A stretch of DNA of 56,819 nucleotides from Eubacteriales bacterium (GCA_045652665.1 JAZRUS010000054.1:1-56819); one strand, 5' to 3'; shown: positions 20,283 through 41,725, counted from the stretch's first letter. Program-made: numbers and translations. The notes: generated by a model not told the origin, from the letters alone.

Positions 20283-20322
20283 GCAGAGGTATCGAAGAGG
20301 TCATAACGGGGCTGACTCGAAA
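20283..20322 (+). pseudogene. 5' half of host tRNA-Ser(CGA) (attL)
   Basis: GCAGAGGTATCGAAGAGGTCATAACGGGGCTGACTCGAAA, then diverges at the end of the anticodon loop. Confidence 0.9.
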
Positions 20323-20461
20323 GAAACTCGGTTTCGTCACTATTTCGGCTCTAGCGTTCCTTGTAAACTCTCACTTTTTCGGGATTTTAAGTGAGGATTT
20401 TTTTAAGGCTGGTAGACAGCTTTCTATCAAAATTCCGTAAAATTTAATATGTTTTTTATAT

Positions 20462-20551
20462 GCAGAGGTATCGAAGCGGTCATAACGGGGCTGACTCGAA
20501 ATCAGTTTGTGCCAAAAGCACACGAGGGTTCGAATCCCTCCCTCTGCGCCA
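20462..20551 (+). tRNA. tRNA-Ser(CGA), complete, probably element-borne
   Basis: Full cloverleaf with long variable arm, anticodon loop CTCGAAA, ends GCCA. Confidence 0.95.
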
Positions 20552-20593
20552 AAGATGCAGTTGCACCATCCGGTGCGACTGCATTTTTCTTTT
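20552..20593. terminator. Terminator between tRNA-Ser and the convergent integrase
   Basis: ATGCAGTTGCACC-ATCC-GGTGCGACTGCAT followed by a T-tract. Confidence 0.75.
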
Positions 20594-20627
20594 GGCGCAG
20601 TCGGTCGGGTTTCTCACAAAAACTATC

Positions 20628-21821
20628 TTACGTTCCGCTTGCAAGAGCCACACCGATTGCCCTTGCACTGTCGAGCTTACTATTGGCATCAAGGTGGCTG
20701 TAAATATTTGAGGTAGTACCCATATCCGAGTGACCGAGCCAATCCTGGATCATCTTCATCGGTATCTTGTTAGCGAGTAGCAGAGATGCGCAGGAGTGCC
20801 TGAGATCGTGAAATCTTATCTTTCTTAGGTCGTGCTTTTTCAGTATCACTCCGAAGTGATCGGTTACGTAATTCGGTCTGTATAACCGTCCGAGAGCATC
20901 AACGTTTATATACTCCTTGTATTCGCCCGTATAGCTTTTTCCCATAACTCTCTGCATTTCAAAGCATTCGTCACGCTTTGCAATAAGTGCTTCTTCTATA
21001 AATGGGAGGAGAGGAAGCGTTCTGTATGAGGATTTCGTCTTCATTACGTCGTATCCTACGGGGCCGTTCTTCTCGTCAACAACCTTGTGCCTTATGCTTA
21101 TCGTCTTTTGATAGAAGTCTATCGCTGACCACTTTAAGCCTAAAACCTCGCTTCGCCTAAGACCGTAGTAAACCGCTAACAGAATTATCAAGTAAAGCTC
21201 GTCGGATTTAGCACATTCGAGGAGCTCTTTTATTTCCTCTGCGTTGTAGTAGTTACCTATGAACTGTACCGCCTTTGGTCTGTCGGCTTGGTCAACGGGA
21301 TTCGATGCTATGATCTTACGCTTCATTGCCGTTTTGAATGCAAGATGGAGCACGCTGTGATACCTCTGCATCGACGTGCCCTTGAGACCTGCCGTTCTCA
21401 GTGAAGCGTAGAATGCGTTTATCTCATCGCCGGTTATCTCGTTAACCTTAATCTTCATCGTTTTGAAGAATGGTATCATCTTTGATTCTATGTAGGTCTT
21501 GTATCCCTCATAGGTCGTTTTTGATACGTTTCCTCTGTGAGATTCGAGCCATTCGACAAGGTAATCCTCTACGAGCGAGTTTGCTATTCTGTGCCTCTCT
21601 CGCTCTGCATGAGTCATATTTTCGGTTAAGTAGGTAGTACCCGTATTCAGTTTTTCAAGGAGAGCGCGAAGTCTGTGATTCGCTTCGGTTTTAGAGCCTT
21701 TTCTTGACTCTAAATCAAGCGAGTACCACTTAACCTTACGCTTTCCGTCAGTTGTATAATGATTAACTGCGGCATACCATTTGCCATTCTTTTCTTCAAG
21801 ATGGCCTGTTAGTTTTTTCAT
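20628..21821 (-). CDS. int: Tyrosine recombinase/integrase (Tn916/ICEBs1-like)
   Basis: GLRRSEVLGL, FHDLRH and LGHS...IYSH catalytic residues. Confidence 0.95.
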   Translation of the reverse strand: MKKLTGHLEEKNGKWYAAVNHYTTDGKRKVKWYSLDLESRKGSKTEANHRLRALLEKLNTGTTYLTENMTHAERERHRIANSLVEDYLVEWLESHRGNVSKTTYEGYKTYIESKMIPFFKTMKIKVNEITGDEINAFYASLRTAGLKGTSMQRYHSVLHLAFKTAMKRKIIASNPVDQADRPKAVQFIGNYYNAEEIKELLECAKSDELYLIILLAVYYGLRRSEVLGLKWSAIDFYQKTISIRHKVVDEKNGPVGYDVMKTKSSYRTLPLLPFIEEALIAKRDECFEMQRVMGKSYTGEYKEYINVDALGRLYRPNYVTDHFGVILKKHDLRKIRFHDLRHSCASLLLANKIPMKMIQDWLGHSDMGTTSNIYSHLDANSKLDSARAIGVALASGT

Positions 21822-21840
21822 TAAAAACCTCCTTTTTAAC

Positions 21841-22209
21841 TTATTTTGTTAAGTTTCTCGTGGTATGTCCGTCGGCTACACTAACATTACCACACATTTC
21901 CGCAAAAGTCCAGAGCCTTTTTGGTCTTTCGGGGGACAAAACCGTATAATTTTCTTCGTTGACTATAAATTCCACCAAAGCCGTCTTGGGTATGAGAATT
22001 CTTCGCCCGATTTTGATGCTTTCTATCCTTCCGTTCTTCAGAAGCTCGTATACGGTGTTCTTGCTACAACGCAAAACCTTTACGATATCCGAGACCTTCA
22101 TAACGTCGGGTTCTTTCTCAAAATAAGCGAATACGCTTCTTTTAATCATGTGCTGATTTTTTCCTTTCTCTATCGGTATTCTTATTCTTACGTTCACTTG
22201 TTTTTTCAT
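21841..22209 (-). CDS. Excisionase-like HTH_17 protein
   Basis: PDVMKVSDIVKVLRCSKNTVYELLKNGRIESIKIGRRILIPK. Confidence 0.85.
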   Translation of the reverse strand: MKKQVNVRIRIPIEKGKNQHMIKRSVFAYFEKEPDVMKVSDIVKVLRCSKNTVYELLKNGRIESIKIGRRILIPKTALVEFIVNEENYTVLSPERPKRLWTFAEMCGNVSVADGHTTRNLTK

Positions 22210-23594
22210 TACATTGACTGACGGAAGGCGTGTTCGCCCTCGTCCTCTCCTTCGTCTATATCATCGTTTTGGGAAAGAGATTCTTCTTTGTTTAAGGCGG
22301 TCAAAATTTTTGTAGTTCCAGCCACTACAAGACCGACTGTCGCACCTGCGTTATCGCCCTCGCGGATCTTGCGCTCTTCCTCGGTTTCATCGCTATCAGC
22401 GACTATATTCCCAGCGTGAGCCCCAAGCCTCGTGAGAGAATGTAGAGTAGCACTATTATCAGAGGCAGAGCCAGAAGCACCAGCTTTACCCACCACATTT
22501 TCTCTTCGCGATCCATTCTGCTTCTTATTTGATTTGTAGCTTCTTCTCTCAGACTCCCAACCTGTCTTTCGATTGTCTCGGTTACTCGTTTCAGAGTTGC
22601 CGTCGCCCATTCCGTGTGCTCGCTCACCTTGCGAACCATCTCGGTAGTGCACGCCTTCGTCGTCTCGCGCATCTCTGCTTCTATCATCTCCATGCGAGTA
22701 AGAGTCTTCACTATCATATCCCAATCTTCCTTCGGTATCGTTACCGTTTCCGTCTCTTTCTTCGGGGCATTTATCATCTTCAAATTGTTGAGCCTCGCCT
22801 TGCCTGATTCTGAACTCATTTTCCATATTCTCCTTTAAGTACTTATCTTCGTGTAGCTTTATATCTCGCACACGACGCGGATTTTTGCCCTCTGCGCCGG
22901 GAACGATGTATGTTATGTATTTTCTCTCGTTCGTCCACATGACGTCGTAACCGCGTGCCCTCATCGCCTCTATAAATTCGTCCTTGCTTGATGCGAATTT
23001 CATACATTCATCAATCACGAAGCAGAGGCGCATCTTCCAACTTTCGCCCTTGATAGCTGCTCGGTATTCCTTCTGTCCGAGGTTCTCATAATTGCGTTTG
23101 TGCGTGTAAGGATCAAGCGTCGAAAGTCCGTGAGCTTCGCATATTTCGTCGCTCTTATTTCGGAGATCACAGAGGAAATCAAGGTTTGCGTGGAGCTTAA
23201 TTCCGGTTTCCAAATCGTATGCGTTTACGACGAAATGATTGTGCAAATGCTCCTTATCAATATGCGTTGCAACGAGCACCTCCCGGTTGCCAAAAGCCTT
23301 CGCAAGCTCGAGACCTATCTCGTGTACCGTCTCGGGTGAAACGTCTTCATCAGGGGAGAAGGACTGCACGTAATGGTAAAATCGTGGGCCGTCTGGCGAG
23401 TGGTCAAAAACCTTCTGCGTCGCTAAAAACGACTCGTGCGCCACGTCGGTTACGCAGTTATAACCGGTCACAAAAACCGTCCTTTCATCTAGCACCGTTT
23501 TATGCGCTTGTATGCAATATTCGATCACTCCGAGCTGTGCGCTGGGCGTTTGATTTTTCTCGGGTATGTTATTTACGGTCGCCATTAGTGTCAC
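22209..23594 (-). CDS. Relaxase (MOBP-type)
   Basis: HYVQSFSP and ATHIDKEHLHNHFVVN 3H motif; hydrophilic C-terminal tail. Confidence 0.92.
   Translation of the reverse strand: MTLMATVNNIPEKNQTPSAQLGVIEYCIQAHKTVLDERTVFVTGYNCVTDVAHESFLATQKVFDHSPDGPRFYHYVQSFSPDEDVSPETVHEIGLELAKAFGNREVLVATHIDKEHLHNHFVVNAYDLETGIKLHANLDFLCDLRNKSDEICEAHGLSTLDPYTHKRNYENLGQKEYRAAIKGESWKMRLCFVIDECMKFASSKDEFIEAMRARGYDVMWTNERKYITYIVPGAEGKNPRRVRDIKLHEDKYLKENMENEFRIRQGEAQQFEDDKCPEERDGNGNDTEGRLGYDSEDSYSHGDDRSRDARDDEGVHYRDGSQGERAHGMGDGNSETSNRDNRKTGWESERRSYKSNKKQNGSRRENVVGKAGASGSASDNSATLHSLTRLGAHAGNIVADSDETEEERKIREGDNAGATVGLVVAGTTKILTALNKEESLSQNDDIDEGEDEGEHAFRQSM
22403..22819 (-). CDS. Overprinted coiled-coil protein with C-terminal TM helix, nested in the relaxase (MobB-like)
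   Basis: 138 aa same-strand alternate frame; AAGGAG 10 nt upstream; ends WWVKLVLLALPLIIVLLYILS. Confidence 0.6.
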   Translation of the reverse strand: MSSESGKARLNNLKMINAPKKETETVTIPKEDWDMIVKTLTRMEMIEAEMRETTKACTTEMVRKVSEHTEWATATLKRVTETIERQVGSLREEATNQIRSRMDREEKMWWVKLVLLALPLIIVLLYILSRGLGLTLGI

Positions 23595-23904
23595 CTCCGA
23601 TGGCGAGAAGTAGCCTTCTGTAAGAGGTCAAAAGAGTGTCAAGATTGACGACTCTTATCGCTCCCTGGTGGCAGAGCCTCGTCAGCTGATTAAGGTTGTT
23701 TCCTTGGTAACGAAGTTCCTTGTTTGCTTCTCTCAAATCCGAGTTAACTACGACTTTACCCCTCATGCACATATCGAGAATAAACTTTCGCATCGAGGGA
23801 GAATCAGACTTTTTTTTGAGCCTTTCAAGAAGCTCTTTTTCTTCGGGTGTGAGGCGTATTGTTATCGTTTCGGTTTGCGTTCTCAAACCGTCATCTCCTT
23901 TCAA
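23569..23904 (-). CDS. mobC: Mobilisation protein MobC (RHH)
   Basis: ITIRLTPEE and LRYQGNNLNQL motifs; overlaps the relaxase start. Confidence 0.9.
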   Translation of the reverse strand: MKGDDGLRTQTETITIRLTPEEKELLERLKKKSDSPSMRKFILDMCMRGKVVVNSDLREANKELRYQGNNLNQLTRLCHQGAIRVVNLDTLLTSYRRLLLAIGGDTNGDRK

Positions 23905-24061: not shown

Positions 24062-24171
24062 GTGACAACGTGACAGCTGGTTTGCTACTGATTTTTGCCG
24101 TCACTATGCCGTGCACGCGTCGCCCTTTGACAGCGTATCTGCCGCTATCCAATGAGCCGTCACGCTGTCAC
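24062..24171. repeat. Six KTGACRRC octamers, candidate replication iterons
   Basis: Forward copies at 24062, 24070 and 24127; reverse copies at 24097, 24156 and 24164. Confidence 0.6.
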
Positions 24172-25282
24172 TGACCGCAATAATCGGCTTATTATTCGGT
24201 GAGGAAGAACCGTCGTCAATAACCGTAATTTCCTCGTCATTGAGGGAAAATTTAAGTATTCTCTGGGAGTTCGTTCTTACGCTCTCAAATCGTAAACCGA
24301 TCTTCGAAAGCTGCTCGTGATAACGCACTAAATTCTTCTTTATCATATTGGAAGGAATATCAATATCGAGCTTATTTTTGATGCCTTCGCTGAGCTCGGA
24401 AGCACTACAAGAATATTCTCCATCGGTGATAATATTGGTATGGGAGAAGAGATATAGTTGTGTCGCTTTCACCGTCAAATTAAGCTCTTCGGGAACGTAC
24501 TCCGTGCCGTCACTAACCTGCCAAATACAGTTATCATCGAGCCTGAGTTCAATCTCTCTGTCAACCACGTCGCGCCCCGAAATAAAGAGCTTACCGCGCC
24601 TCTCAGTGCGCTTCGGGCGGAGCAGTAGCCAGTAGTTATCAACCGCGCCAACAAGTGCCGTAGAACCCGAAACAGCGTTGTACTGATCGTTGTCTTGCAT
24701 CTTCCTCGTATGGTGAACAACCAGCAGTGAAACGTTATGCGATTGGGTGAATTTATGCAGAGGAATAAGGTCGTTATAGTCCTTCTCATAGAGGTTCGCA
24801 TTCTTGCTTTCCGGGCGAATATAATTGAGCGTATCTATCGCTATAAGCACGGTGTCGGGATGATTACGAATGAAGTCGTCAAGAGCGTCAATAAGACCTT
24901 CGTCTATTCTGATTGCCTGGTTTGTAAAATGGAAATTTGATGGCATCTCGTCTGTCATTTGCATCGCTCGAGCTTGTATTCTGTCCTCTGTATCCTCGAA
25001 TGAAAGATAGAGTACCGTACCTTTTTTACTTGGGAAACCGAGTATGCTTTCACCTTTAGCAACCGCTATACAAAGGTTAAGAGTGAAGAAGGATTTACCT
25101 GCCTTTGGCGCACCTGCAAGGAGCGTAAGTCCTACGGGGAGAACAGAGGAAATAATCTGTTCCTTATGGTTTATTTGTTTATTCATAAGCGTTTCACCGT
25201 CAACGGTTTTAAAACGCTTTATACCTAAGAGCTCCTCTCTAATCCGCTTTTGTTCTTCATCAAAATCAAATGAGTCAAACAT
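24104..25282 (-). CDS. AAA_25 / RepA-type helicase
   Basis: LAGAPKAGKS, VLYLSFED, LIAIDTL, VHHTRK and SGSTAL.GAVD motifs. Confidence 0.9.
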   Translation of the reverse strand: MFDSFDFDEEQKRIREELLGIKRFKTVDGETLMNKQINHKEQIISSVLPVGLTLLAGAPKAGKSFFTLNLCIAVAKGESILGFPSKKGTVLYLSFEDTEDRIQARAMQMTDEMPSNFHFTNQAIRIDEGLIDALDDFIRNHPDTVLIAIDTLNYIRPESKNANLYEKDYNDLIPLHKFTQSHNVSLLVVHHTRKMQDNDQYNAVSGSTALVGAVDNYWLLLRPKRTERRGKLFISGRDVVDREIELRLDDNCIWQVSDGTEYVPEELNLTVKATQLYLFSHTNIITDGEYSCSASELSEGIKNKLDIDIPSNMIKKNLVRYHEQLSKIGLRFESVRTNSQRILKFSLNDEEITVIDDGSSSPNNKPIIAVSDSVTAHWIAADTLSKGDACTA

Positions 25283-25580
25283 CTGTCTTTCCTCCAAATT
25301 TCGTTTTGTTTATCGCCTTCATTTGCTCCCTGGCTTTTTCCTTTCGCTCCTCGGAGCAAGGATTAAGAAGACGAAAGGTGAAGTATTCCTTCCGCACCTC
25401 GAAGCATAACTGTCCGCATCCGTCATCATCGGTAAGACGGCAAAGCTCGGGATGCTCGGAGGCGTATTTCGTCAGCCTATTTTTAAGAGCAGTATTGTAC
25501 GTTTGTATCGTTGTAATATCATTTTCTTCATCGAAGAAAATCCCGGTAACCTTGTGTATTTTCTTTATTCCGGTTATCAT
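25275..25580 (-). CDS. Hypothetical IME backbone protein
   Basis: Coupled to the helicase start; GGGG RBS; TYNTALKNRL..YA..HPELC. Confidence 0.7.
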   Translation of the reverse strand: MITGIKKIHKVTGIFFDEENDITTIQTYNTALKNRLTKYASEHPELCRLTDDDGCGQLCFEVRKEYFTFRLLNPCSEERKEKAREQMKAINKTKFGGKTDV

Positions 25581-25855
25581 TTTTAGAATCACCCCTTTTT
25601 TAGAAATAGTCTTCAAAATGGCAAAAATTCGTTAGGTCTAGACCGAGGAAATAAGGCATTTTTCCTTTTCTGTTACTTGGATTTTATCAGCTGATCGATA
25701 AAGCTCTTAAAAAAGGCGATTTGCCGAATTTCCACGGACTAAACCGACGAGGAAAAGCCGTGCAATTTTCATCAAAAAAGGGCAGGAATTCAAGGCAAAA
25801 AGGCATAGCAAAAAGTCTATGTCTTACCTAAAATTCCTACCCTTGTATCTCGGAT

Positions 25856-26110
25856 TCACTGCCGAGAGGATGAAATTGATTCGCCACGCGAAGCGGCACA
25901 AAAATTATGTAATCTTTTGATGCTCAGTCCAACGAGCTGATGACATTTAGGACACTCAAGTATAAAATCCGCATACGGCTTCTCCGATAACCTAAAGACT
26001 ATACTGTCGTTTCTGATATCTCTGTCTGAAACGTCTGCAAATCTGTGGTTTCCGTATGGGCACTTCAGCTTTGGCATACCACGTCTGCCATCGTCACAAG
26101 CTTTTTCCAC
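25856..26110 (-). CDS. Small Cys-rich (zinc-ribbon-like) protein
   Basis: CPYG..ECPKC; begins directly after the lexA stop. Confidence 0.55.
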   Translation of the reverse strand: MEKACDDGRRGMPKLKCPYGNHRFADVSDRDIRNDSIVFRLSEKPYADFILECPKCHQLVGLSIKRLHNFCAASRGESISSSRQ

Positions 26111-26111
26111 G

Positions 26112-26744
26112 TCAGCACCTCCTTCTCCTAGAGGCTTCTAAGTTTTTCAGAACTCTGATTGCCACACCCACAATGTGTACTTCGGAAAGGATAATATCGT
26201 CGAGCTCGTCGTTTTCGGGATGGAGAATAAAACGCTTATTCTTCTCGTCACGATAAAATCTCTTTAGCGTTGCACGCCAACCGTCCGAATGTTCGTCCTC
26301 TATCATTGCAACTACGATTTCTCCATCGTCTGCGGTGTCCTGTTTTCGTACGTAGACGGTATCTCCGTTATCGATACCGACCTTTATCATAGAATCACCG
26401 CTTGCAATAAGACCAAAGTATTCGCCGGGGCCGAGTGATGCCTCGTCGACGGGAAGATATCCCTCTATATCCTCAATAGCGAGAGTAGGAGCACCGCACG
26501 CAATTGCACCAACGATAGGCATCCTGGTGTAAGAGAAATTGTCAGCAGTGATAGTCTGGTATCTTCCATACTTTTCTATAAGACCTTCTTCGACAAGGCG
26601 ATTCATGTATTTTGATACAGTGGATTTCGCCATTCCGAGCGTATTTCCGATTTCAAGAGTCGTGGGGCATACGCCTCTCTCCTTCATAAAGCTCGTAACG
26701 AAGCGGTAAACGTCCATCTTTCGCTCGTCATTCTTCGGTCTCAT
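26112..26744 (-). CDS. lexA: LexA-family repressor
   Basis: N-terminal wHTH (PTTLEIG), IACG cleavage region, GDSM Ser and TLKR Lys; ATG 26744 with AAGGAG. Confidence 0.88.
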   Translation of the reverse strand: MRPKNDERKMDVYRFVTSFMKERGVCPTTLEIGNTLGMAKSTVSKYMNRLVEEGLIEKYGRYQTITADNFSYTRMPIVGAIACGAPTLAIEDIEGYLPVDEASLGPGEYFGLIASGDSMIKVGIDNGDTVYVRKQDTADDGEIVVAMIEDEHSDGWRATLKRFYRDEKNKRFILHPENDELDDIILSEVHIVGVAIRVLKNLEASRRRRC

Positions 26745-26773
26745 AGTCAGTCTCCTTTGGTTTTGATATAACC

Positions 26774-26823
26774 CGAACAAGAGTTCGTGATATAATTATA
26801 GCACACCGAAAACCGCTTGTCAA
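26774..26823 (-). promoter_or_regulatory. lexA promoter with Gram-positive SOS box
   Basis: TTGACA-17-TATAAT (26823-26795) followed by CGAACAAGAGTTCG (26774-26787), fitting GAAC-N4-GTTC. Confidence 0.85.
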
Positions 26824-26880
26824 TACCCAGATGTACATATTCATGCACATCATATCCCAACTTTTACCCATCTGGGCAGT

Positions 26881-26949
26881 TTTTTGAAAAAATCGCGTCT
26901 TCTTTGATTAAGGCAGTGTATTTTTTTGTCATTGGGACAGAGAAAAGGT
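26881..26949. repeat. ~65 bp imperfect direct repeat, copy 1
   Basis: TTTTTGAAAA...TCTTCTTTG..AGGC.GTGTA.TTTTTTGTCATTGGGA..AGAGAAAA shared with 39052-39119. Confidence 0.8.
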
Positions 26950-26983
26950 CTGCCAACTAGACAGACCTTCAAAGATTAAATTT

Positions 26984-27988
26984 TTAGGTTTTAAATATTG
27001 GATCAACGTCATCGACTCGACCATAATATACATGCGCTGCTTCGCGACATCCGCCGTCGCATATATCTTTTTTATCGCAATCTTTACACATTTCAGGAAG
27101 ATAATCCCGGCTTCTGAATCGTATCCAATACTCATTCTGTGCAAGAGTGTCAAGCTCATCATATCTACAAACACGAACAGGAGAGTGATTACAAACCTTG
27201 AGATATCCGCTTGGATCAACAACGCAGAAACCTTTTGCAGCAGAGCAAAGGTTGCTTACTTGAATATGCTTATATTTTTCGGGATGATCTATCGCACATA
27301 ACGGCAATTCCGTTCCAACATGCCCATACTTGTTGGATTTCGCTAACACAGCTTCTGCAATATCAAGCATTTGATTGGTTTCTTCTTTTGTCAACAAATA
27401 CTCTTGATTTTTAAGTCCTCGTCCACCGGGCAAAAATCTATTTAGCAAAACATAGTCTGCACCTTTTATAAGAGCGTAAGCAATATTCTCATATAGTTCG
27501 GGAAGATTCTTTTTTGTCACAGCAATGTTTGCCGTCGTTCGAATTCCTCTAATTTTGGTTTTTTCGAATAATGACAACACATGCTCAACATTATCTATGC
27601 CGGTATGTTCCATAAATGTTTCTATTCCGGGAATACTAATGCAGATTGAAATTCTTCTTTTGGCAATAAAATCCAAAAAGTCATCATTGATTTTTCTGCC
27701 GTTTGAAATGATATTAAGCGAGGCTCCTCTCTGCAAAATATAATCAATGAGTCGAGTTAAATCCTCACGCATTAAGGGTTCACCGCCTGTTAACGTAAAA
27801 GATTCAACACCATTTTTCATTAAAATATCAACTACAGAATACCATTCTTCAAGAAATAGCTCATCTTTTTTATAGTTTTCTTCTGATTCCCAAGGACATG
27901 AACAAAATAAACATTTGTGATTGCAACGATATGTTAATTCAAGTGCAGCAACGCTCGGAAGAGGGGTTAAAAAAATGTTTGTTTTCAT
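26984..27988 (-). CDS. Radical SAM/SPASM domain protein
   Basis: CNHKCLFC, TGGEPL; C-terminal CSAA..C, VC and CKDC....CDGGC. Confidence 0.93.
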   Translation of the reverse strand: MKTNIFLTPLPSVAALELTYRCNHKCLFCSCPWESEENYKKDELFLEEWYSVVDILMKNGVESFTLTGGEPLMREDLTRLIDYILQRGASLNIISNGRKINDDFLDFIAKRRISICISIPGIETFMEHTGIDNVEHVLSLFEKTKIRGIRTTANIAVTKKNLPELYENIAYALIKGADYVLLNRFLPGGRGLKNQEYLLTKEETNQMLDIAEAVLAKSNKYGHVGTELPLCAIDHPEKYKHIQVSNLCSAAKGFCVVDPSGYLKVCNHSPVRVCRYDELDTLAQNEYWIRFRSRDYLPEMCKDCDKKDICDGGCREAAHVYYGRVDDVDPIFKT

Positions 27989-27994
27989 TCTTAG

Positions 27995-29545: not shown

Positions 29546-29898
29546 TCTAGCTCATTAGCACGAGTTAATTCATGAATAAGTACCGAATTTGCCGATTTAG
29601 TCAAATACGGATTTAAATATATTGCTCCATCGTATGTATACGAATTTACATTACCATTGTCATTTTTGGAAGCTTTATTTTTATTCCAACCTACATATTG
29701 ACTGAAATTAATATCAATGTTTGTGCGTATATACAGTTTGGCGAAATGCACAAGATTATATATGTTATCTATATGGTAAGCCCTTGCTTGTCTAATCATT
29801 GCGCGGATACTAAGTTTTGTAGGTTCATTCTGCATTCTGTATTCAGGGATATTTGCTCTTGCCCATGCATCAATTTCCATAGCTTCTTGGTTCATAAT
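29497..29898 (-). CDS. Hypothetical protein
   Basis: GGAGG RBS before MNQEA; degenerate IHELTR; overlaps the next ORF. Confidence 0.55.
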   Translation of the reverse strand: MMNQEAMEIDAWARANIPEYRMQNEPTKLSIRAMIRQARAYHIDNIYNLVHFAKLYIRTNIDINFSQYVGWNKNKASKNDNGNVNSYTYDGAIYLNPYLTKSANSVLIHELTRANELDWGTWKCMILEGTKNW

Positions 29899-29922
29899 AC
29901 CATGACCTCCATTCAAAAACAA

Positions 29923-32407: not shown

Positions 32408-32454
32408 GATTTCCTCCTATAATAACTTTACTGAACCATATTCGGCAAAGGTGT

Positions 32455-33867: not shown

Positions 33868-33872
33868 AGTGT

Positions 33873-36356
33873 TTACCCCTTAATGATATTTGCGATATCA
33901 AACATTCCAGTACCCGAATCTGCATGAATTTGAATAGAAAGCAATTCAAACAGAACGCGGCGAAGTTGATCAATATCGTCATTTGCCAATGCTTGATCTC
34001 CAAGCTGCTTAAGTTGTCTAAATCTCGTCACATCCGAATAGTTAGAGGAGGATGTAACAGAACGCTGATACCAATCAACGATGAACCAATCCTGACGAAT
34101 CAGTATCATTGTATTCTTGGTTTTCATGCTATCTAAAATATTGTCAAAGTCGGTATCATTACGATCTATCGATCTCTGTGCGGTGCGTGTAAGATTGTCA
34201 AATGCTTGTTCTTCTGCTTTGGTAGCGAATTGGCGAACAATTTCATTGAAAAATTCTACGCAACTATCAAGATCCATCTGTCTAATCGTTTTGAGGTTTG
34301 CTTGACGAGTTTTATTGATAAGCTTCTTCGCATCAAGCAAGTCGTTGTTGGCTTTCTGCACATCCTCGGCTTCACTTTGAGGTTGACTATCAAGGTTCGC
34401 TGCACGTTCAGCTTTTTTACGAGCTTCTGCAAGTTGAGGATCATCAACCTTTTCTGCCATACTATCAATTCTGTCTAATACCTGACGGCCTTGCTCAGCG
34501 ATGCTATCAATGTCGGTAAGATCAATTTGTCCTTCCTGACGAGAATAGAAGTTGCGATTTGCAAAGGATGCACCAATGCAAGGGATCGATACCTCCAAGT
34601 TGATCGTACCCGAATCCAATATTTCGTATTCGCATTCGATATCTGCACCTGTAGGAACTACACCTGAATCAATATCAGTACCTGTTATCTTCAACATGCC
34701 GATAAATCTGTTATCGGTAATAGGAGATTGGATATTACCTTCCCACAGCTTAATATTGATGGAGTCATTCGTGCCTGCTTTAAGTGTTTGTCCAGCCTTA
34801 ACGGTAAGAGTACCTTTCTTAGGAAGAGCATCTCCTTCTTCGACCAAAAACATAAGTTCGGGAACACCGCCAAGCTTGTCAATAACCTCAACTCCGATAG
34901 AATGCGATGCTGGTATAGCACCAATTGTTGCAAGAGTTTTGGTGATCACAATGGTGTTGCTTCCAATAGGTTGCTCACGACCAAATTCGTCCATTACTTT
35001 TACAGTAAAGGCATTTTCTCCGTTTTTGCTCAACGGAAGCGAAACCATCATATTGTTTTTCAATGCAGCAGAACCGGAACTCCAACCTGTATCGGAGCTT
35101 GTGAACTCTATCGTGTAGCCGTTCAAATCATTTCCAAGCACACACATAATTTTGGCAGAATCATTGGGTGTTCTTGCAGTATATTTAAACGAAAGATCAA
35201 TGTCTGTTTTGATAACTTCGTTAGCTGCTTTTCTACTGTGAGTATTGGACGACCAATCAATAGACTCAGCAAAAATACTTGCGCCTTCTGCAACAGCGGT
35301 CATCGGGTTTACATCGATGTTCGCCGGCAAAGACAACTCGTAAGCAATCTTATCACGCAAAGGCTTGTAATTTGTGGGGCCACCTACGAAAACAATTCTT
35401 TCAATATCGTTTGCAGAAAGACCTGCCTTGTTCATCGTTTCTCTTGTGGCTTCTACGGTTTCTTTAACGAGATCTGCGATAATGCTATCTACCTGTTGAC
35501 GGTTTAGATCAATGTCGAGATACATCTCGTTTCCGTCCTCATCGGTAGTACGAGCTTCGCCCTCGCTCAATGCGATAGTGCTTGTTTCGTTAGCCGAGAG
35601 TTCAATCTTTGCTCTTTCTGTTGCCCATTGTGCAACTCTGCAAAATGTTTTATATTTGCGGTTGATAAGAAAATCTTCGGGCAAAGAGAAGTTGGCTCTC
35701 AACCACGGAACAACAATCTGATTGAACACCATTCTGTCAATATCTCTACCGCCACACATTTCTACTCCGCCATGTGCCAAAAGATTGACCTTGCCATTGA
35801 TATTTTCGGCAATAGAAACGTCGAATGTACCACCTCCTAAGTCGTATACCAAGAAAATTCCTTCTTGCTTGGAGGCACGCATAATACTCATAATTGCCGC
35901 AACAGGCTCTTGCATCAAGGCGACATTATTAATACCTGCCATTTTTGCCGCTTGAAGAGTAGCATCCTTCTTCATCTGATTGAAGGCGGCAGGAACAGTA
36001 ATAACGACCGCAGTTTCGGGATCGTTTCTAATTTCTTCGGGCAAATAGCCGTACAAAACTTTCAAAATTTCCGCGCTACATTCTTCGGGCGTAAGCGAGA
36101 GTTGAGCTGCTTCGAGTTCAATTTTCGTGCTTGTTCCCATAAAACGCTTGAAGAGGGTTGCTGAGTTGCTGGGATTATAGGGAGCTTGGTTATAAGCTTT
36201 GTTTCCATAATAGCGGTTACCACGCTTATCAACATAAATCGCAGAAGGGGTTACATCGTTCTGTTCGGGACTTTTCCATACTCTAACTGTAGTTCCGTCG
36301 TAGGAACAAATTGCGCTATTTGTAGTACCCAAATCAATGCCTATGTAGTATCTCAT
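33873..36356 (-). CDS. Atypical Hsp70 family protein (827 aa)
   Basis: GIDLGTTNS, ITVPAAF, EPVAA, YDLGGGTFDVS and VGGPT motifs; non-DnaK C-terminal half. Confidence 0.93.
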   Translation of the reverse strand: MRYYIGIDLGTTNSAICSYDGTTVRVWKSPEQNDVTPSAIYVDKRGNRYYGNKAYNQAPYNPSNSATLFKRFMGTSTKIELEAAQLSLTPEECSAEILKVLYGYLPEEIRNDPETAVVITVPAAFNQMKKDATLQAAKMAGINNVALMQEPVAAIMSIMRASKQEGIFLVYDLGGGTFDVSIAENINGKVNLLAHGGVEMCGGRDIDRMVFNQIVVPWLRANFSLPEDFLINRKYKTFCRVAQWATERAKIELSANETSTIALSEGEARTTDEDGNEMYLDIDLNRQQVDSIIADLVKETVEATRETMNKAGLSANDIERIVFVGGPTNYKPLRDKIAYELSLPANIDVNPMTAVAEGASIFAESIDWSSNTHSRKAANEVIKTDIDLSFKYTARTPNDSAKIMCVLGNDLNGYTIEFTSSDTGWSSGSAALKNNMMVSLPLSKNGENAFTVKVMDEFGREQPIGSNTIVITKTLATIGAIPASHSIGVEVIDKLGGVPELMFLVEEGDALPKKGTLTVKAGQTLKAGTNDSINIKLWEGNIQSPITDNRFIGMLKITGTDIDSGVVPTGADIECEYEILDSGTINLEVSIPCIGASFANRNFYSRQEGQIDLTDIDSIAEQGRQVLDRIDSMAEKVDDPQLAEARKKAERAANLDSQPQSEAEDVQKANNDLLDAKKLINKTRQANLKTIRQMDLDSCVEFFNEIVRQFATKAEEQAFDNLTRTAQRSIDRNDTDFDNILDSMKTKNTMILIRQDWFIVDWYQRSVTSSSNYSDVTRFRQLKQLGDQALANDDIDQLRRVLFELLSIQIHADSGTGMFDIANIIKG

Positions 36357-36721
36357 TTTTCAATCCTCCCAAGTAGTACGGTGCCGGTTTTAACAACAAC
36401 ATCGTTTTGCATTATGATAGGCTCCATTGTCTGCGCGACATAGAGAACATCGTCTGTTTCAAATTCTTCAATATTTAGTGGCGTAACAGCCATGCCGGGA
36501 TCGTAGATTTGTCCGTCAAGGTCTATAATTCTCAATCCTGAATCATCAAGAGCTTTCATCACTCTTTTGGAAAACCAAGAAAATTGACTATTATACTTTG
36601 TCTGTTCCTCTACATCTAATTTGCTAATCGCTTTTGCGAACACACGCTTAAAACGGAACATTTCCGAACCTATCGTTATTAGATTCTCTCTCATAATTTC
36701 TAATTCGTTATTCATATTCAA
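36353..36721 (-). CDS. GrpE-like protein (divergent)
   Basis: Helical N-half, then G..YDPG...EP.....VVKTGTV resembling the GrpE beta domain; overlaps the hsp70 start. Confidence 0.6.
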   Translation of the reverse strand: MNMNNELEIMRENLITIGSEMFRFKRVFAKAISKLDVEEQTKYNSQFSWFSKRVMKALDDSGLRIIDLDGQIYDPGMAVTPLNIEEFETDDVLYVAQTMEPIIMQNDVVVKTGTVLLGRIEK

Positions 36722-36732
36722 CTCCTTGATTT

Positions 36733-37470
36733 TTATTTAAATTTAAAGCCAGTAGGAGCTTTTTGGGATATTGAAGTTCCGTACATGTTAATGTAGATAG
36801 TCTTATATCTTCTTCCATCAACGAACGAGATGTCGTAAATGTCTATCATTCCATTAATACCATTCACACTCATTGAGCCACGACGATCCCAAATAATTGC
36901 CTTTCCGTCAGAGGTCATCAAAGATCTTAAATACTTTTCAGAACCTCCAACTCCTGTTGTATAGATTGGCTTATTGGGAACAAGTCCATATTCCTCGTCA
37001 TCGAGGTTATCATTCTGTGCTTCCTCATTCAATCGAGAAGTTTCTCGATTTTGAGTCAAGATATTATCAAACATATTAAGCGCGTTGATATCTTCGGCAG
37101 ACTCCAACGCAAACGAATTGTTCTTCATGTTTATGGTACAGTAAGCAAGAACCTGTTGTGCAAGCATGTCATTATTGATATATTGTTTGTGATTTACTTG
37201 CAAGCTTACGATTATGTGTTCATCGGCACTTTTGGTTACAACTCGTCTGATAAGCACACCCGAATATATGGTCAAAACATTGTAATAATCTATCGGCTTT
37301 AATGCAGATAAATCAATGCCTAAAATCACGGCTAATGACTTAATGATACGGCTCGCTTGTTCCTTACCTCCGGGAAAGACCATGCCCACCATTTCCGGCT
37401 TATAACATTTATAAGCTAAAGCAACTTTTTTATCATGTTGGTTATTTTTTAAGAAGTCAAACAATCCCAT
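36733..37470 (-). CDS. Hypothetical protein
   Basis: Starts MGLFDFLK with GGAGG RBS; C-terminal YGL.P.KPI...YL..L...R.GS...IDIY...NMY...APTGF domain. Confidence 0.75.
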   Translation of the reverse strand: MGLFDFLKNNQHDKKVALAYKCYKPEMVGMVFPGGKEQASRIIKSLAVILGIDLSALKPIDYYNVLTIYSGVLIRRVVTKSADEHIIVSLQVNHKQYINNDMLAQQVLAYCTINMKNNSFALESAEDINALNMFDNILTQNRETSRLNEEAQNDNLDDEEYGLVPNKPIYTTGVGGSEKYLRSLMTSDGKAIIWDRRGSMSVNGINGMIDIYDISFVDGRRYKTIYINMYGTSISQKAPTGFKFK

Positions 37471-37492
37471 AATTTTTTCCTCCAAAGTTTAT

Positions 37493-38161
37493 TCAATCAT
37501 TCGGCAAACAGATTTGACACGGATCGTACTTGCCTGAATAATAGTCGCGCTCTGTTAAACGGCGCACAGATTTCTTGTCTTTTATGAAGATGCAGTTTTC
37601 TTCATGATAGCATGATCCTGTTTCGGTTACATAGAAATCACCATAATAACTGCTTTGCTTGATTAAAAACGAGACAAGGGGGATGGTTATCAACAAACAC
37701 ACTACCACAATCATTGCGATAATCGCAAGCTTCTTATTCTCATGATATTTTGCAACTGCCAAGGTGATTAAGTCGGGGTGAAGGATATAATGGGCAAATT
37801 CATTTGCCTCACGTTCTTCTTCTACATCAAGAGGAGAGGTGCCGTTTCCTTTCATATGACCGCAAGCGATATGTCCTAATTCATGCGACAAGGTATAGGT
37901 CTTATCATTGGCGTTTGTATCATCACGAATAAAAACAAATTTCAAGCCATTTCCGTTGTATGAAAATGCCTTGCATCCTTGTGAATAATTTTCAAGGTTT
38001 AGGCTGCTTAAAATGTTGTTTTTTTCACCCAACGAGTATTCAACGATTTCGTATCCCTGATCTTCTATTATGTAAACAAGATTGTCAAGTGTAACTTTTC
38101 CGAGCTTATACTTTCGGAGTAGCGACTTTGCTCGATTTATTGCAATTTTATCGTTAGTCAT
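37493..38161 (-). CDS. ImmA/IrrE-family metallopeptidase with TM helix and C-terminal Cys/His domain
   Basis: TLSHELGH..EEREANEFA; TM; YVTETGSCYH...C...PCQIC. Confidence 0.85.
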   Translation of the reverse strand: MTNDKIAINRAKSLLRKYKLGKVTLDNLVYIIEDQGYEIVEYSLGEKNNILSSLNLENYSQGCKAFSYNGNGLKFVFIRDDTNANDKTYTLSHELGHIACGHMKGNGTSPLDVEEEREANEFAHYILHPDLITLAVAKYHENKKLAIIAMIVVVCLLITIPLVSFLIKQSSYYGDFYVTETGSCYHEENCIFIKDKKSVRRLTERDYYSGKYDPCQICLPND

Positions 38162-38549
38162 TCTCATCCTCCTTGCTCGCTATAATTAAACCATTGAATG
38201 GTTTAACGATAGGTGATGAGTCCTCAGCGTTTGAACAGCGATTGTATTCTAATGTCAAGATACTTTTAACCGCATGAACACCCTTTACATCTAATTTAGA
38301 GAGCATCGAACAAATCTCATAAAATTGATCATTAAATATCGTTAAGTCGGCATCATACACTTGTTTCAAGTTCAGAAGCTTGCATATCTTAATCACGGTA
38401 TCATAGGAAGTTCCTCCAACCCCTTTGGTTAAAGCGTTGGATAAGGTACTATACGGAATACCGCTAACTTCCGAGAACTTTTTTACGCTTTTGTACTGTC
38501 GTTTAATTTCATCTCGAATTAATATTGTAATACTGTCCAAGGTTATCAC
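38154..38549 (-). CDS. Xre-family HTH regulator (ImmR-like)
   Basis: SVKKFSEVSGIPYSTLSNAL..G......TVIKICKLL; coupled to the ImmA-like gene. Confidence 0.85.
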   Translation of the reverse strand: MITLDSITILIRDEIKRQYKSVKKFSEVSGIPYSTLSNALTKGVGGTSYDTVIKICKLLNLKQVYDADLTIFNDQFYEICSMLSKLDVKGVHAVKSILTLEYNRCSNAEDSSPIVKPFNGLIIASKEDEND

Positions 38550-38578
38550 TCCTTTTTAGCAAAAAACACTACGAATAC

Positions 38579-38607
38579 ATTATATCACCAAATTTCGATT
38601 TTGTCAA
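38579..38607 (-). promoter_or_regulatory. Sigma-A promoter of the cargo operon
   Basis: TTGACA-17 bp-TATAAT with extended TG. Confidence 0.75.
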
Positions 38608-38700
38608 CAAAAAATTATCCAAATTTGGTTTTTTATTTTTTGGCATAAAAAAAGAGGATAAGAATTTATTCTTATCTCCTTATTTTGAGAAATTTATCCG

Positions 38701-38973
38701 TTAGTCGTCTTTATCCGTCTGCACCTCCATCACTAACCTCGCTCCGAGCTTGAAGGCGTATTCGAATATGGATGCTTCGGCAAGGCTCATGTATTCGCTC
38801 CAGCAGTCGTGGAACTTGTCGAAGATTTCTTTTTGTTCCTCGGTGAAGGTTTTCTCCAAGTCCTCGTGATGCCTTGCCATATATCCAAGGAGCTCTTTCA
38901 TCTCTTTGGAGTTCGTTCTGCTGTCCTCTTGCGGTATTATGTTGCCGTGCCATAGTTCTTTTACTACGTTCAT
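38701..38973 (-). CDS. DUF6809-like small protein
   Basis: ELWHGNIIP...F.YAFKLGARL pattern; GGAGG RBS. Confidence 0.75.
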   Translation of the reverse strand: MNVVKELWHGNIIPQEDSRTNSKEMKELLGYMARHHEDLEKTFTEEQKEIFDKFHDCWSEYMSLAEASIFEYAFKLGARLVMEVQTDKDD

Positions 38974-39051
38974 TTTTATTACCTCCGGTAGCACAACACA
39001 ATACCACATAAATCTCGCAAAGTCCAGACAATTTGGGAAAAGAAAACAGGC

Positions 39052-39119
39052 TTTTTGAAAACGCCCTCTTCTTTGTTATAGGCGGTGTAATTTTTTGTCA
39101 TTGGGAAGAGAAAAACGGT
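39052..39119. repeat. ~65 bp imperfect direct repeat, copy 2
   Basis: Aligns with 26881-26949. Confidence 0.8.
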
Positions 39120-39144
39120 GAGCATTTCTGCCCACCGTCGCTTA

Positions 39145-40416
39145 TTAGTTTTGTATTGCGAGATTGTACCTTGCAAGTACGTATTCCTTGATTTCCTTTG
39201 CTTTTACCTTCATATTTATTTTCCCAATAACTGCCTCTATTGTTTCCTCGCTAATGGTAGGTATATATTCCTTGTATTCGGGATAGGTTTCCATAACGTC
39301 GCGGAAGAGGGATATCAGAAGGTCGTTTGCGTTAGGTTTTGCCGGGTAACCACGGGAAATAAGTGCCATATTGTTATCGTAGTTCGGTGCGAGCCCGAGA
39401 AGCTTTCCGCTTTTCACATCACGCATAAGACCGAAGTTGTTTGTGTGTCGGTCGGGGTTTGCGCAGATCGTATCCATAAATATAAGCTTAATATAATCGG
39501 GGATTGCTTCGGGGCATATTCCTTCGAGTGCATCGATAACGTCGAGGTAGTCCTCGTTATCTCCCATAAATGCCGATGCAGGCTCGAAGTTCACTGAACC
39601 TTGCGAGGTGAAGTCAAGGCTCTTAATACAGCCTGTGCCTTTTTCATATCTTGCCATATTCATTCCGAGTGCTTTTCCAAGTTCGTAAACGAAGAGCTCG
39701 GAGAACATTTCGGGAAGAGTGGCTTTTTTGTGCATCCACCATTTGCCGTCCTTAAGCTTCCAGCATTTTTCAAAACTACCTACGTTTGTAAGTTCCGGAC
39801 TCTTCGTGTGTCCTCCGGAAGCTGCTTTGTTGAAGCTATCGTAGTTTCCCTTGAGGGCAAGGCTTGCGAAATAGTCGTTATCGAATTTCACGTCAGCATA
39901 GGTAAGCGTCGAGCCTATCGGTCTTATCCAATAGTTATCGGTAATGGTCGCCGCATTTACATGAATAACGGTGGAAATATCGTCCTTGTTTTCAAGGCGA
40001 AGCGCCTTTTTCAAGAGTCTTGAGTTAGCTCTGTGACTGTCTATTGCTCTAGTTTCAAGCCAAGAGTCTGCATCACGATATTTTCTAAGATATAACGGGA
40101 GAAGAGATTCGTTGTGAACAGTCAAATTTTTATCATTCCAGGTTGCGACAAGAGTATCTCCCGAAAGTATTTCATATGAGTCTTTTGTTGGAGCATTGTT
40201 ATTTACTACGGGTGCATCGGGAATAAACTCCATAATGTCGTCGAGTGTACATTCAAGAGCTGCACAGATCTTCCCGAGAACGTCTACGGTAACGTTATCG
40301 CCTCTTGACATCTTACTTATTGTAACTGGATTTATTCCGGCAAGTGCGGCAAGCTCTTTCTTTTTCATATCCTTATCAATGAGGAGCTTCCACAACTTTT
40401 TATAGGTAACAGCCAT
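39145..40416 (-). CDS. Xre-HTH fused to HipA-like kinase
   Basis: MAVTYKKLWKLLIDKDMKK HTH; GSFEKCW, N.DRH.NNFG and LAPNYDN kinase motifs. Confidence 0.85.
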   Translation of the reverse strand: MAVTYKKLWKLLIDKDMKKKELAALAGINPVTISKMSRGDNVTVDVLGKICAALECTLDDIMEFIPDAPVVNNNAPTKDSYEILSGDTLVATWNDKNLTVHNESLLPLYLRKYRDADSWLETRAIDSHRANSRLLKKALRLENKDDISTVIHVNAATITDNYWIRPIGSTLTYADVKFDNDYFASLALKGNYDSFNKAASGGHTKSPELTNVGSFEKCWKLKDGKWWMHKKATLPEMFSELFVYELGKALGMNMARYEKGTGCIKSLDFTSQGSVNFEPASAFMGDNEDYLDVIDALEGICPEAIPDYIKLIFMDTICANPDRHTNNFGLMRDVKSGKLLGLAPNYDNNMALISRGYPAKPNANDLLISLFRDVMETYPEYKEYIPTISEETIEAVIGKINMKVKAKEIKEYVLARYNLAIQN

Positions 40417-40656
40417 ATTTACCTCCAAAAATGCTTTTGTATCATTTTATCACAAAAACAGCCGCTTGTCAACTAATAAATTTTGCGTTCTCCAAATTAT
40501 TTTGCAAATTTGTTAATTTCGCACATAATTACTATCACTGTGGTGATAGTTTCGTTTGCTTGAACTGAACTTAAAAAATGCAAAAATTAAGAAAATATAA
40601 AGTAGACTTTAGATTTTCCTAAAAATCAAGGCTGGGCGAGTGCCCAGCCTATCGTA

Positions 40657-41199
40657 TTATGAGAAGTATTCGTTAAGCAATTCTTGATGCTTTTGACTCT
40701 TCTTTGCGATTTTAAATCCGTAATTCGAGATGAATGCTATCATCCATTCCTTTGCTATGATTTCCTCGCCTTGAGCTTTTACGCATTTTAGGTGTTCACG
40801 GTTTATCCATCGTCTTACCGAGTCGTGCTCGTAGCCGAGGAGCTTTTCGAGCTCTTTCGGTGAGAAGGTTTCTTTTTGATTGCACCACCGTTTTGTAAGC
40901 CATTTGGAGAAGTCTTCCCGAAGTTCATTCGGGTATCGTATTTCCGAGGTGCTTTTCTTTGCTGAGAATATGGGAGGAACAAAGTATGCGTTTGGGTTTT
41001 TGCTAACTGTACTCACATAGTGAATAACATCCGTAATTTCTATCGTGTATCGCCTGGTCTTCTTCTCGGTATCCTTGCAGGGTATTACTCCGTTCTGGAG
41101 CATCCAAGCACACTTGCGTTTGCTGATTCCGAGGATAATTCTGAGTTGCTCGGAGTTTATCGTTTTGGGATAAGTTGATACGATTTCGTTAACCGTCAT
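40657..41199 (-). CDS. Tandem HTH (MerR/Xis-like) DNA-binding protein
   Basis: Two Xis-like repeats (LRIILGISKRKCAWMLQNG; LEKLLGYEHDSVRRWI). Confidence 0.7.
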   Translation of the reverse strand: MTVNEIVSTYPKTINSEQLRIILGISKRKCAWMLQNGVIPCKDTEKKTRRYTIEITDVIHYVSTVSKNPNAYFVPPIFSAKKSTSEIRYPNELREDFSKWLTKRWCNQKETFSPKELEKLLGYEHDSVRRWINREHLKCVKAQGEEIIAKEWMIAFISNYGFKIAKKSQKHQELLNEYFS

Positions 41200-41455
41200 T
41201 TTTCTCACCTCCGACTCTGAAGCGTTTGCCGTCTGTATCGTCGGCATGCAGTAGGAGGTAATCTATTAGGTCGAGCTTTGATATGAGGTGAGCGCCTCGC
41301 ATAACGAAGCTTCTCAGCTCGCCCGATTTGAGCAGTGCATAAATCGTATTTTTACTTTTCTTCGTCCATCTCGCTGCTTGTATAGGTGATAGAATGTCGG
41401 GGCATCCGCGAAGTAGCCATTCAAGGTCTTGTCTTCTGGTTTCCGTATTGTTCAT
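41189..41455 (-). CDS. Excisionase-like HTH_17 protein
   Basis: PDILSPIQAA...SKNTIYALLKSGEL...ISKLDLIDYL. Confidence 0.75.
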   Translation of the reverse strand: MNNTETRRQDLEWLLRGCPDILSPIQAARWTKKSKNTIYALLKSGELRSFVMRGAHLISKLDLIDYLLLHADDTDGKRFRVGGEKNDG

Positions 41456-41666
41456 TTTTCTTTCTCCGTAATCTTTTTTTGCCGACGGTTACTGAGAAGT
41501 TGACAATTTTGAGATTTAGTGATATAATTCTTTTGCTGAATTTTACGGATTTTCTGACAGTTTTCTATCATTTTTCTTGAAAATAGTCGGAATTTTCGCT
41601 ATTATATGCCGGGATTTGTTATCAAATAGTGACGACGAGGGACGAGTAGGTATTAAACGGTTAATT

Positions 41667-41725
41667 ACTCGAAATCAGTTTGTGGATAACACCACACGAG
41701 GGTTCGAATCCCTCCCTCTGCGCCA
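41667..41725 (+). pseudogene. 3' half of host tRNA-Ser(CGA) (attR)
   Basis: ACTCGAAATCAGTTTGTGGATAACACCACACGAGGGTTCGAATCCCTCCCTCTGCGCCA followed by a terminator hairpin. Confidence 0.9.

Follow-up and report, generated by a model that had tools for sequence, protein, structure and literature searches.

A mobilizable element of rumen and gut Clostridia probably splits its target tRNA-Ser(CGA) gene and carries a complete replacement inside its left end

This study analyzed a 56,819-nt stretch of DNA from a Eubacteriales bacterium (GCA_045652665.1 JAZRUS010000054.1:1-56819; hereafter the window), taken from an assembly of 1.76 Mb that is 82% complete. A 21.3-kb integrative mobilizable element (IME; 20323-41666), whose mobilization is predicted from its gene content, lies between the two halves of a host tRNA-Ser(CGA) gene and carries a tRNA-Ser(CGA) gene of its own. 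The copy in the window probably arose by a break-and-replace strategy, in which the target gene is destroyed on integration and the incoming element supplies a whole substitute. The first-pass annotation of this DNA had proposed such a strategy; it is supported at the family level by relatives of the integrase, in which the overlap is limited to the anticodon loop and a whole tRNA gene lies inside the left arm. In the proposed mechanism, a tyrosine integrase would recombine an attachment site (attP) that shares only the anticodon loop (CTCGAAA plus one flanking A) with the host gene. Because attP shares only the loop, integration would leave a dead 5' half and a dead 3' half, and the element would compensate with its own complete tRNA gene, located between attP and the integrase gene and equipped with its own promoter- and terminator-like signals. 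The attP of the circular form would have the order right arm, core, left arm, and excision would rejoin the two host halves.

In the window, the 5' half of the host gene (20283-20322, plus strand) stops at the 3' edge of the anticodon loop (ending ...GCTGACTCGAAA, then GAAACTCGG), and the 3' half (41667-41725, plus strand) starts at the 5' edge of the loop (opening with ACTCGAAATCAG, preceded by ...GGTTAATT). The overlap of the two halves is the 8-bp core ACTCGAAA only, which is present on the plus strand at 20315-20322 within the 5' half (attL) and at 41667-41674 within the 3' half (attR); neither half matches a tRNA model in ARAGORN or Rfam. The complete, element-borne gene (20462-20551, plus strand) begins 139 bp inside the left end. 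It is the one tRNA-Ser(cga) that ARAGORN calls in the window, and it covers the full Rfam model with 52.4 bits (gathering score 29). Relative to the 5' half, it has a single changed D-loop base (AAGAGG in the 5' half, AAGCGG in the complete gene); relative to the 3' half, it has another variable arm (GTGCCAAAAGCAC in the complete gene, GTGGATAACACCAC in the 3' half). Both the split gene and the second, slightly different copy had been described in the first-pass annotation, and both descriptions held. A repeat search of the window agreed, returning a 60-nt direct repeat spaced 179 nt (5' half versus complete tRNA) and direct repeats at 20494-20552 and 41667-41726, with the likeness continuing beyond. 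When joined, the two halves give exactly the intact tRNA of a metagenome contig (L111). The 20462 copy is the only tRNA-Ser(CGA) that ARAGORN detected in the assembly; a tRNA-Ser(TGA) is also present and might read UCG. We infer from the sequence that the element tRNA would be expressed and that the host would need it.

The 139-bp left arm (20323-20461, plus strand; the P' arm of attP) contains TCGTCACTATTT, a hairpin with a T-run (~20369-20403), GACAGCTTTCTATCA and TCCGTAAAATT. The right arm (41499-41666, plus strand; the P arm) contains a consensus outward promoter, inverted TCCGTAAAATT, GACAGTTTTCTATCA and AAATAGTGACGA, and ends ...GGTTAATT. Three motifs are common to both arms and, within the 56.8 kb, are confined to the 139-bp spacer and the last 170 bp before the 3' half: GACAGYTTTCTATCA (20415-20429 and 41556-41570, both plus; 2 matches in the window versus 0.02 expected), TCCGTAAAATT (20434-20444 plus and 41539-41549 minus; 2 versus 0.05) and TCGTCACTATTT (20334-20345 plus and 41624-41635 minus; 2 matches with at most one mismatch versus 0.46, a number reached in 6 of 100 shuffles), with the motifs picked after the data had been seen and the expected counts therefore post hoc. 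All three motifs that the first-pass annotation had placed at both ends were real, and its right-side coordinates for TCCGTAAAATT were approximately 2 nt off. Among related elements, window-type arms have GACAGYTTTCTATCA, TCCGTAAAATT and TCGTCAC in both arms, and an alignment of eight left-arm copies (integrases 65-100% identical) contains invariant blocks beside the core and at CAG.TTTCTATCAAAATTCC. A sister clade carries TCTCGCA twice in the left arm and approximately four times in the right arm, and a lineage with 44% identical integrases repeats GTTCTCTCC in both arms. The right arm and its junction were also found in three other genomes (G013, G005 and G048). Across the related elements fetched, the right junction always reads ...GATACTG.C.TTTG followed by CTCGAAA. 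In this respect the arms resemble P and P' of a lambda-type attP, and the shared motifs are probably arm-type sites for the integrase and the excisionase; binding of the integrase to them is predicted.

The layout of the window recurs across the integrase family. A total of 166 integrase relatives were found in species-representative genomes, and the best 80 (61-99% identity) were read from the integrase outward. A tRNA-Ser 5' fragment ending at the loop, an arm, a full tRNA-Ser and then the integrase were present in 50 of the 80 loci, which answers the suggestion of the first-pass annotation that integrase homologues be surveyed for a half-tRNA, spacer and full-tRNA order. The fragments end in CTCGAAA, or in CTTGAAA at tRNA-Ser(TGA) in 3 loci, and the arms measure 126-162 nt (300 nt in one). 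The upstream sequence was too short at 6 loci, and 20 had no full tRNA call: 8 of these have the arm of another element, CTCGAAA with a 3' half, and then the integrase, 4 are at a contig end or masked, and 8 have no tRNA piece in the ~520 nt before the integrase. Four loci have no fragment despite at least 230 nt of upstream sequence (L023, L032, L039 and L057), so that 50 of 54 informative relatives show the fragment-arm-tRNA order. In the plasmid and phage collections that were searched, only integrases of 32-43% identity were found. Two linear, unannotated virome records labelled "Bacteriophage sp." were among the sequences recovered: MT836101.1 has the fragment-arm-tRNA-integrase layout and no attP, and MT836946.1 has a full tRNA-Ser(cga) only, with no upstream fragment and no attP. 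The former (L143, 1-2000; human faecal virome) contains two tRNA-Ser 5' fragments, a full tRNA-Ser and a 42% identical integrase, and its arms carry TTCTCTCC motifs; it looks like bacterial chromosomal DNA, and it thus indicates that the same layout occurs in human-gut organisms.

The sister clade allowed the origin of the intact tRNA gene to be separated from that of the fragments. An identical 89-nt tRNA stands beside the integrase in 19 sister-clade loci, each from a different record. Across the whole survey, the upstream fragments vary with the host, with 12 different anticodon stems and three quite different D-arm types; in 21 of the 50 loci, the fragment and the neighbouring tRNA have different anticodon-stem strands. 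Interiors were read for five elements lying in long contigs, and right ends were found in four. In three of these four (G041, G042 and G043), the far 3' half can pair, in the anticodon or acceptor stem, with the host fragment upstream but not with the element tRNA: the host halves pair CATGA/TCATG in G041 (element tRNA GCTGA/TCAGT), GGAAGCG/CGCTTCC in G042 (element tRNA GGAGACG/CGTCTCC) and GCAGACG/CGTCTGC in G043. The fourth (G044) is uninformative because its host and element tRNAs are identical. The stem pairing in G041-G043 therefore indicates that a host gene was split around an element carrying a whole, different tRNA-Ser. A hybrid gene made of a host 5' part and an element 3' part, as conventional integration would produce, was not encountered in the sister clade; the two tRNAs of the window are too alike for this comparison. 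A right end was not found for G045 within 41 kb, nor for G046 or G049, nor for 5 further elements, in which the contigs end or the element exceeds the fetched stretch.

Within the window's own subclade, one locus (L020) combines a 98% identical integrase with the same arm of 139 bp and a tRNA of 100% identity. Sequence similarity to the window begins at the 5' half and extends across the arm, tRNA and integrase at 91% nucleotide identity, and the flank is unrelated. The same element, at 95% over its right 2.5 kb, is present in another genome (G013), where it is followed by the right flank known from the window; the contig with the left junction breaks off exactly at ACTCGAAA. This assembly fork would fit two 5'-half copies with different continuations, and is only a hint. 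A 7.7-kb version (G048) has the same right arm, and its displaced host 3' half is followed by the same hairpin as the window tRNA. Among relatives of the host, G010 has an intact tRNA behind upstream sequence that it shares with G023; in G023, the shared sequence leads into a 5' half broken at ACTCGAAA, behind which come an arm and then a foreign tRNA.

The left-flank search also revealed periodic 5' halves in other genomes of the genus. In G004, four tRNA-Ser 5' fragments ~180 nt apart lead up to a full tRNA-Ser of divergent sequence, behind which stands an integrase. A cut at ACTCGAAA ends the third fragment, and the arm seen in the window comes next; the fourth is the window's element-type 5' half, interrupted at ACTCGAAA in its turn, but by a different arm. 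This nested array is distributed over two contigs, with the 3' half completing the fourth fragment on the other contig, between the right arm of the inner element and a window-type integrase. The guess of the first-pass annotation that the new tRNA could serve for tandem accretion was thus supported, both by this array and by the 8 survey loci noted above, which are inner junctions of tandem arrays. Since each element brings a fresh intact tRNA-Ser, further elements could insert into it; if att sites of different elements then pair, or 5' halves recombine homologously, arrays of 5' fragments would be left upstream. As a separate observation, two family integrases (L052 and L056) lie ~7.4 kb apart on one Caproicibacter metagenome-assembled genome contig, each right after a tRNA-Ser 3' half, and thus mark a tandem array of small elements.

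Several observations weigh against a break-and-replace origin of the copy in the window. The compensatory comparison made in the sister clade is impossible here, because the two tRNAs differ by one D-loop base and the variable arm. Of the four closest relatives that the survey retained, three (L021 and L023 at 98-99% and L022 at 93% integrase identity) have a promoter directly before a tRNA, then the integrase, and neither fragment nor arm; their upstream sequences measure 179 nt (L021), 336 nt (L023) and 206 nt (L022), such that only L023 exceeds 230 nt. Scars consisting of a fragment and the window-type arm before an intact tRNA, with no such integrase nearby, were found at L110, L111 and G005, and this pattern is the one that the first-pass annotation had named as its refutation. 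The stretch behind the element tRNA (a hairpin and CAGTCGGTCGG) resembles the stretch behind the 3' half; a conventional attP holding the 3' half and some flank would look alike. Lastly, excision of the window copy left no trace in the searches described below, with neither a circle junction nor a same-strain empty site found.

In an alternative reading, the element inserted conventionally into the anticodon loop of the 20462 gene with an attP holding the 3' part only. In the circle, the right arm would then be joined to ACTCGAAATCAGTTTGTGCC... inside the 20462 copy, and 20283-20461 would remain in the chromosome as the scar of an older element of the same kind that has ceased to recombine. 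The scars of the same kind (5' half plus arm) at L110, L111 and G005, the fragment-less order of L021 and L023, and the repeats at 20494-20552 and 41667-41726, with their continuing likeness, all fit this alternative, and close relatives among actinobacteriophages are reported to switch between rebuilding the tRNA and not doing so (PMC10865867). However, it still requires an earlier break-and-replace event with the same arm type. Moreover, the fragment-arm-tRNA layout predominates among informative relatives as counted above, the tRNA beside the integrase is not a loop-joined hybrid in any of the cases where this can be tested, the left arm has three motifs in common with the right arm of the present element, and in L020 the left arm accompanies the tRNA and integrase into an unrelated flank. 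The fragment-less case that could be resolved (L057) has a tRNA with the host acceptor base but the element anticodon stem, and its far 3' half is of the host type; it is best read as a secondary deletion, in which the arm would have been lost by homologous recombination within the 5' half rather than by a crossover in the loop. Scars are also expected under break-and-replace, because the att sites of different elements can pair in nested arrays, and G004 shows nesting directly. Conventional insertion beside an old scar is therefore considered improbable for the window. A local duplication of the tRNA 5' region unrelated to the element, leaving a pseudogene upstream of the real gene, would account for the 60-nt direct repeat 179 nt apart, but is very improbable, as the fragment ends precisely at the 3' edge of the loop and the far half starts precisely at its 5' edge, the spacer carries right-arm motifs, and this junction and arm are seen again in other genomes whose flanks are unrelated.

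Returning to break-and-replace, excision products and empty sites were sought in public data. Metagenome contigs held no match to an exact 26-nt pattern taken immediately before the 5' half. Left- and right-flank searches of 40 relatives gave no syntenic empty site, and the right flank was found only in G013, where it is occupied. A junction-side pattern matched two metagenome contigs, both chromosomal scars; neither this pattern nor the right-arm-end patterns matched viral contigs. All 9 distinct right-arm junctions in the fetched loci are followed by a tRNA 3' half, and none is an attP junction. In 20 public sequencing runs, at most 0.40 of the sampled words were present. Four runs were examined as Logan contigs, in which the tRNA and integrase of related elements were covered and the flank of this host hardly at all; no junction of right arm and left arm occurred among the loose ends listed in these four runs, which is not evidence either way. 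A GTTAATTACTCGAA sequence before the L035 integrase was considered as an attP remnant and was taken as chance; it follows a membrane-protein gene, and the nearby tRNA, 1.1 kb away, is cut by the contig end. In the window, 20322 would pair with 41667, and this copy may still excise at these positions.

The signals around the two tRNA genes were inspected for their bearing on transcription. A promoter-like site (TTGCTT, 17 nt, TG-n-TATACT; 20178-20206, plus strand) was recognized by eye upstream of the broken tRNA and was not called by the consensus promoter scan; similar TTGATT...TGATATAAT sites precede tRNA-Ser in relatives. The first-pass annotation had the host promoter reading through the arm into the new tRNA, for which no support was obtained: the arm contains the hairpin and T-run, and by eye a -35/-10-like TAGACA...TAAAAT precedes the complete tRNA. 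Neither the hairpin with its T-run nor these boxes were called by the terminator and promoter scan, and the predicted RNA fold of 20283-20410 is no better than that of shuffles (z = -1.17), so the hairpin and T-run are a visual lead only. In the right arm, the sigma-70-type promoter at 41500-41528 (TTGACA, 17 nt, TATAAT, with TG) matches the consensus at 12 of 12 positions and points outward at the core; in the circle it would read across attP toward the tRNA. An inverted copy, 83% complementary to this promoter, lies at 38579-38608, upstream of a helix-turn-helix (HTH) gene (38154-38549), which suggests that one regulator may control both.

Behind the element tRNA, the interval 20552-20627 (plus strand) holds a terminator-like hairpin (~20556-20585), a T-run and a short spacer with CAGTCGGTCGG, a sequence also present after the 3' half at 41667-41725. 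The hairpin and a CAGT(C/T)(G/C)GTCGG motif are shared among 20552-20612, 41726-41780 and G048 (L116) 7941-8000. The inner end of the left arm is similar to what looks like a native tRNA promoter in G005. The element tRNA cassette, promoter and terminator included, seems to have been captured from a host of the same genus.

Compared with known systems, the element combines traits that have been reported separately. Conventional anticodon-loop integrases of tRNA-borne islands, reportedly treated by Williams in 2002, are said to share with the present element an integrase beside an intact tRNA, a crossover in the 7-nt loop and a displaced 3' fragment at the far end. In those islands, attP is said to supply the 3' part of the tRNA such that a hybrid gene is restored and only a 3' fragment is displaced, whereas here attP contains the loop only, a 5' fragment is displaced as well (in the window and in the 50 related loci), and the intact gene is wholly that of the element. 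Streptococcal elements accrete into tandem arrays by site-specific insertion beside a resident element, leaving att-flanked, cis-mobilizable remnants. The present family likewise forms tandem arrays and remnants; in streptococci the att site is rebuilt from the 3' end of the target, whereas here the newcomer brings the next target gene.

The nearest precedent is tRNA-dependent lysogeny in actinobacteriophages (Fionnbharth, LeBron, Gaia and others; Guerrero-Bustamante & Hatfull 2024, PMC10865867), a precedent to which the first-pass annotation had rightly pointed. The common core of these phages measures 8-17 bp and the tRNA is not restored; lysogeny requires a phage tRNA of the same isotype, and among close relatives some rebuild the tRNA and others do not. 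The present system has the corresponding parts, namely a tyrosine-family integrase with a SAM-like N-terminal domain, an attB inside the host tRNA gene, a short core (8 bp shared by halves that do not score as tRNAs), a cognate tRNA-Ser(cga) on the element and probable arm-type sites flanking the core. In contrast to the phages as they are described there, it is a relaxase-bearing mobilizable element without phage genes in gut Clostridia rather than Actinobacteria, its target is tRNA-Ser(CGA) (or tRNA-Ser(TGA) in 3 loci) with the anticodon loop itself as the core, the replacement tRNA lies 126-162 bp from the core such that attP, tRNA and int form one compact module, and the element tRNA is the next attB, giving tandem arrays and stacks of upstream 5' fragments. 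For Lactobacillus johnsonii, outside the Actinobacteria, the paper mentions prophage Lj965 as a possible further case (PMC10865867). Like the present element, Lj965 resides in a Firmicute, and it is said to leave the tRNA at the junction unrestored and to carry the cognate tRNA; unlike it, Lj965 is a prophage and not an IME. Recombination with the 5' part of a tRNA gene is cited as rare, with reference to Zhao & Williams 2002 and archaeal cases, in PMC6563490. Such elements also displace a 5' piece of the target tRNA, but as described there they join a new 5' part to the host 3' part, whereas here a whole gene is supplied and neither host half is reused. No description of this strategy in integrative mobilizable or conjugative elements was found in the open-access literature searched.

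These results extend tRNA-dependent integration, described in 2024 for actinophages, to non-phage mobilizable elements in another phylum. The conservation of attP, tRNA and int in one module across several integrase lineages indicates a widespread design rather than a curiosity. On balance, it is somewhat more likely than not that several integrase lineages (40-100% identical) of mobilizable elements from rumen and gut Clostridia normally integrate by gene replacement, that this has left a fossil record of accretion, and that further families use it. If this is true, one element could enter hosts with wholly different tRNA-Ser bodies, as it needs only the invariant loop; the upstream stack of 5' fragments would be a readable, ordered record of past invasions; and cuts at the D-loop, the end of the D-stem and the acceptor/D junction would suggest more element families with the same strategy. 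For genome annotation, island finders that rely on an intact tRNA and a 3' fragment would misplace the left border of such elements by ~180 bp and call the element tRNA a host gene, and tRNA gene counts in such genomes partly reflect mobile DNA. The design also suggests a route to a wide integrase host range via a 7-bp target, and the 5'-fragment arrays are possible markers of strain history.

All long open reading frames (ORFs) between the two tRNA halves are on the minus strand. The tyrosine integrase (397 aa, 20628-21821; Pfam Phage_integrase 8.2e-25, Phage_int_SAM_3 1.2e-11) reads toward the tRNA and its gene ends 76 nt from it. It is followed by an excisionase-family HTH protein (21841-22209; Pfam HTH_17 1.2e-12, NCBIfam TIGR01764 excise at 42.6 bits against a cutoff of 28.8), a MobA/VirD2-type relaxase (22209-23594; Pfam Relaxase 9.1e-30), a NikA/MobC-like relaxase accessory protein (23569-23904; Pfam NikA-like 3.6e-14) and an AAA_25 ATPase (RepA/DnaB-like; 24104-25297; Pfam AAA_25 1.3e-26). 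Two HTH_17 proteins (40657-41455) occupy the right end. Among the 23 ORFs scanned, no phage structural or lysis families were found, and no type IV secretion system or coupling-protein family scored above threshold (a weak YWFCY match reached 0.0021). An integrase and excisionase module at one end, att sites bounding the whole, and a relaxase with its NikA-like partner in the absence of type IV secretion families are as expected of an IME, and the relaxase and NikA-like protein together with the lack of phage families speak against a temperate-phage carrier.

The region between these modules (25275-40428, minus strand) holds cargo and regulators, including a LexA/S24-like repressor, a pair of an M78 peptidase and an HTH protein, and an HTH-HipA-like kinase, as well as a radical-SAM protein, a TPR protein, a 649-aa protein, a DUF6809 protein, an Hsp70-like protein of 827 aa and an AAA ATPase that resembles IetA/IteA. 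The radical-SAM protein has a weak viperin-like match (pVip, 4.9e-19). The cargo at 26984-36356, which includes several proteins without a family, looks like defence genes, and no complete known defence system was recognized in it. On the host side to the right of the element, a DUF4760 protein and a TIR/SEFIR-domain protein (43742-45312) possibly form another defence locus.

Additional tRNA 5' fragments that are cut elsewhere than at the loop were observed ahead of tRNA-Ser(CGA) in relatives, at L005 (G004:C55, 1148-1360), L016 (G010, ~590-810), L018 (G007), L020, L110 and L111. Some are cut behind TCATAACGGG, some behind the D-loop (GAAGCGG then ATTC) and some at GAGGTAT; in this last type, an insert of ~64 nt is flanked by GAGGTAT-like repeats, and G007 has two in tandem. 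These fragments look like the scars of other element families that displace the 5' part. Finally, the last 39 nt of the window (56781-56819, at the contig end) are found again, 97-100% identical, in two other genomes of the genus, both times at a contig end or close to one, namely at the contig end of L014 (G005:C33) and at 434-464 of L130 (G013:C28). The G005 copy lies directly behind a GAGGTAT break in the tRNA scar region, and the 39 nt probably mark one end of a repeated insertion element at which assemblies break.

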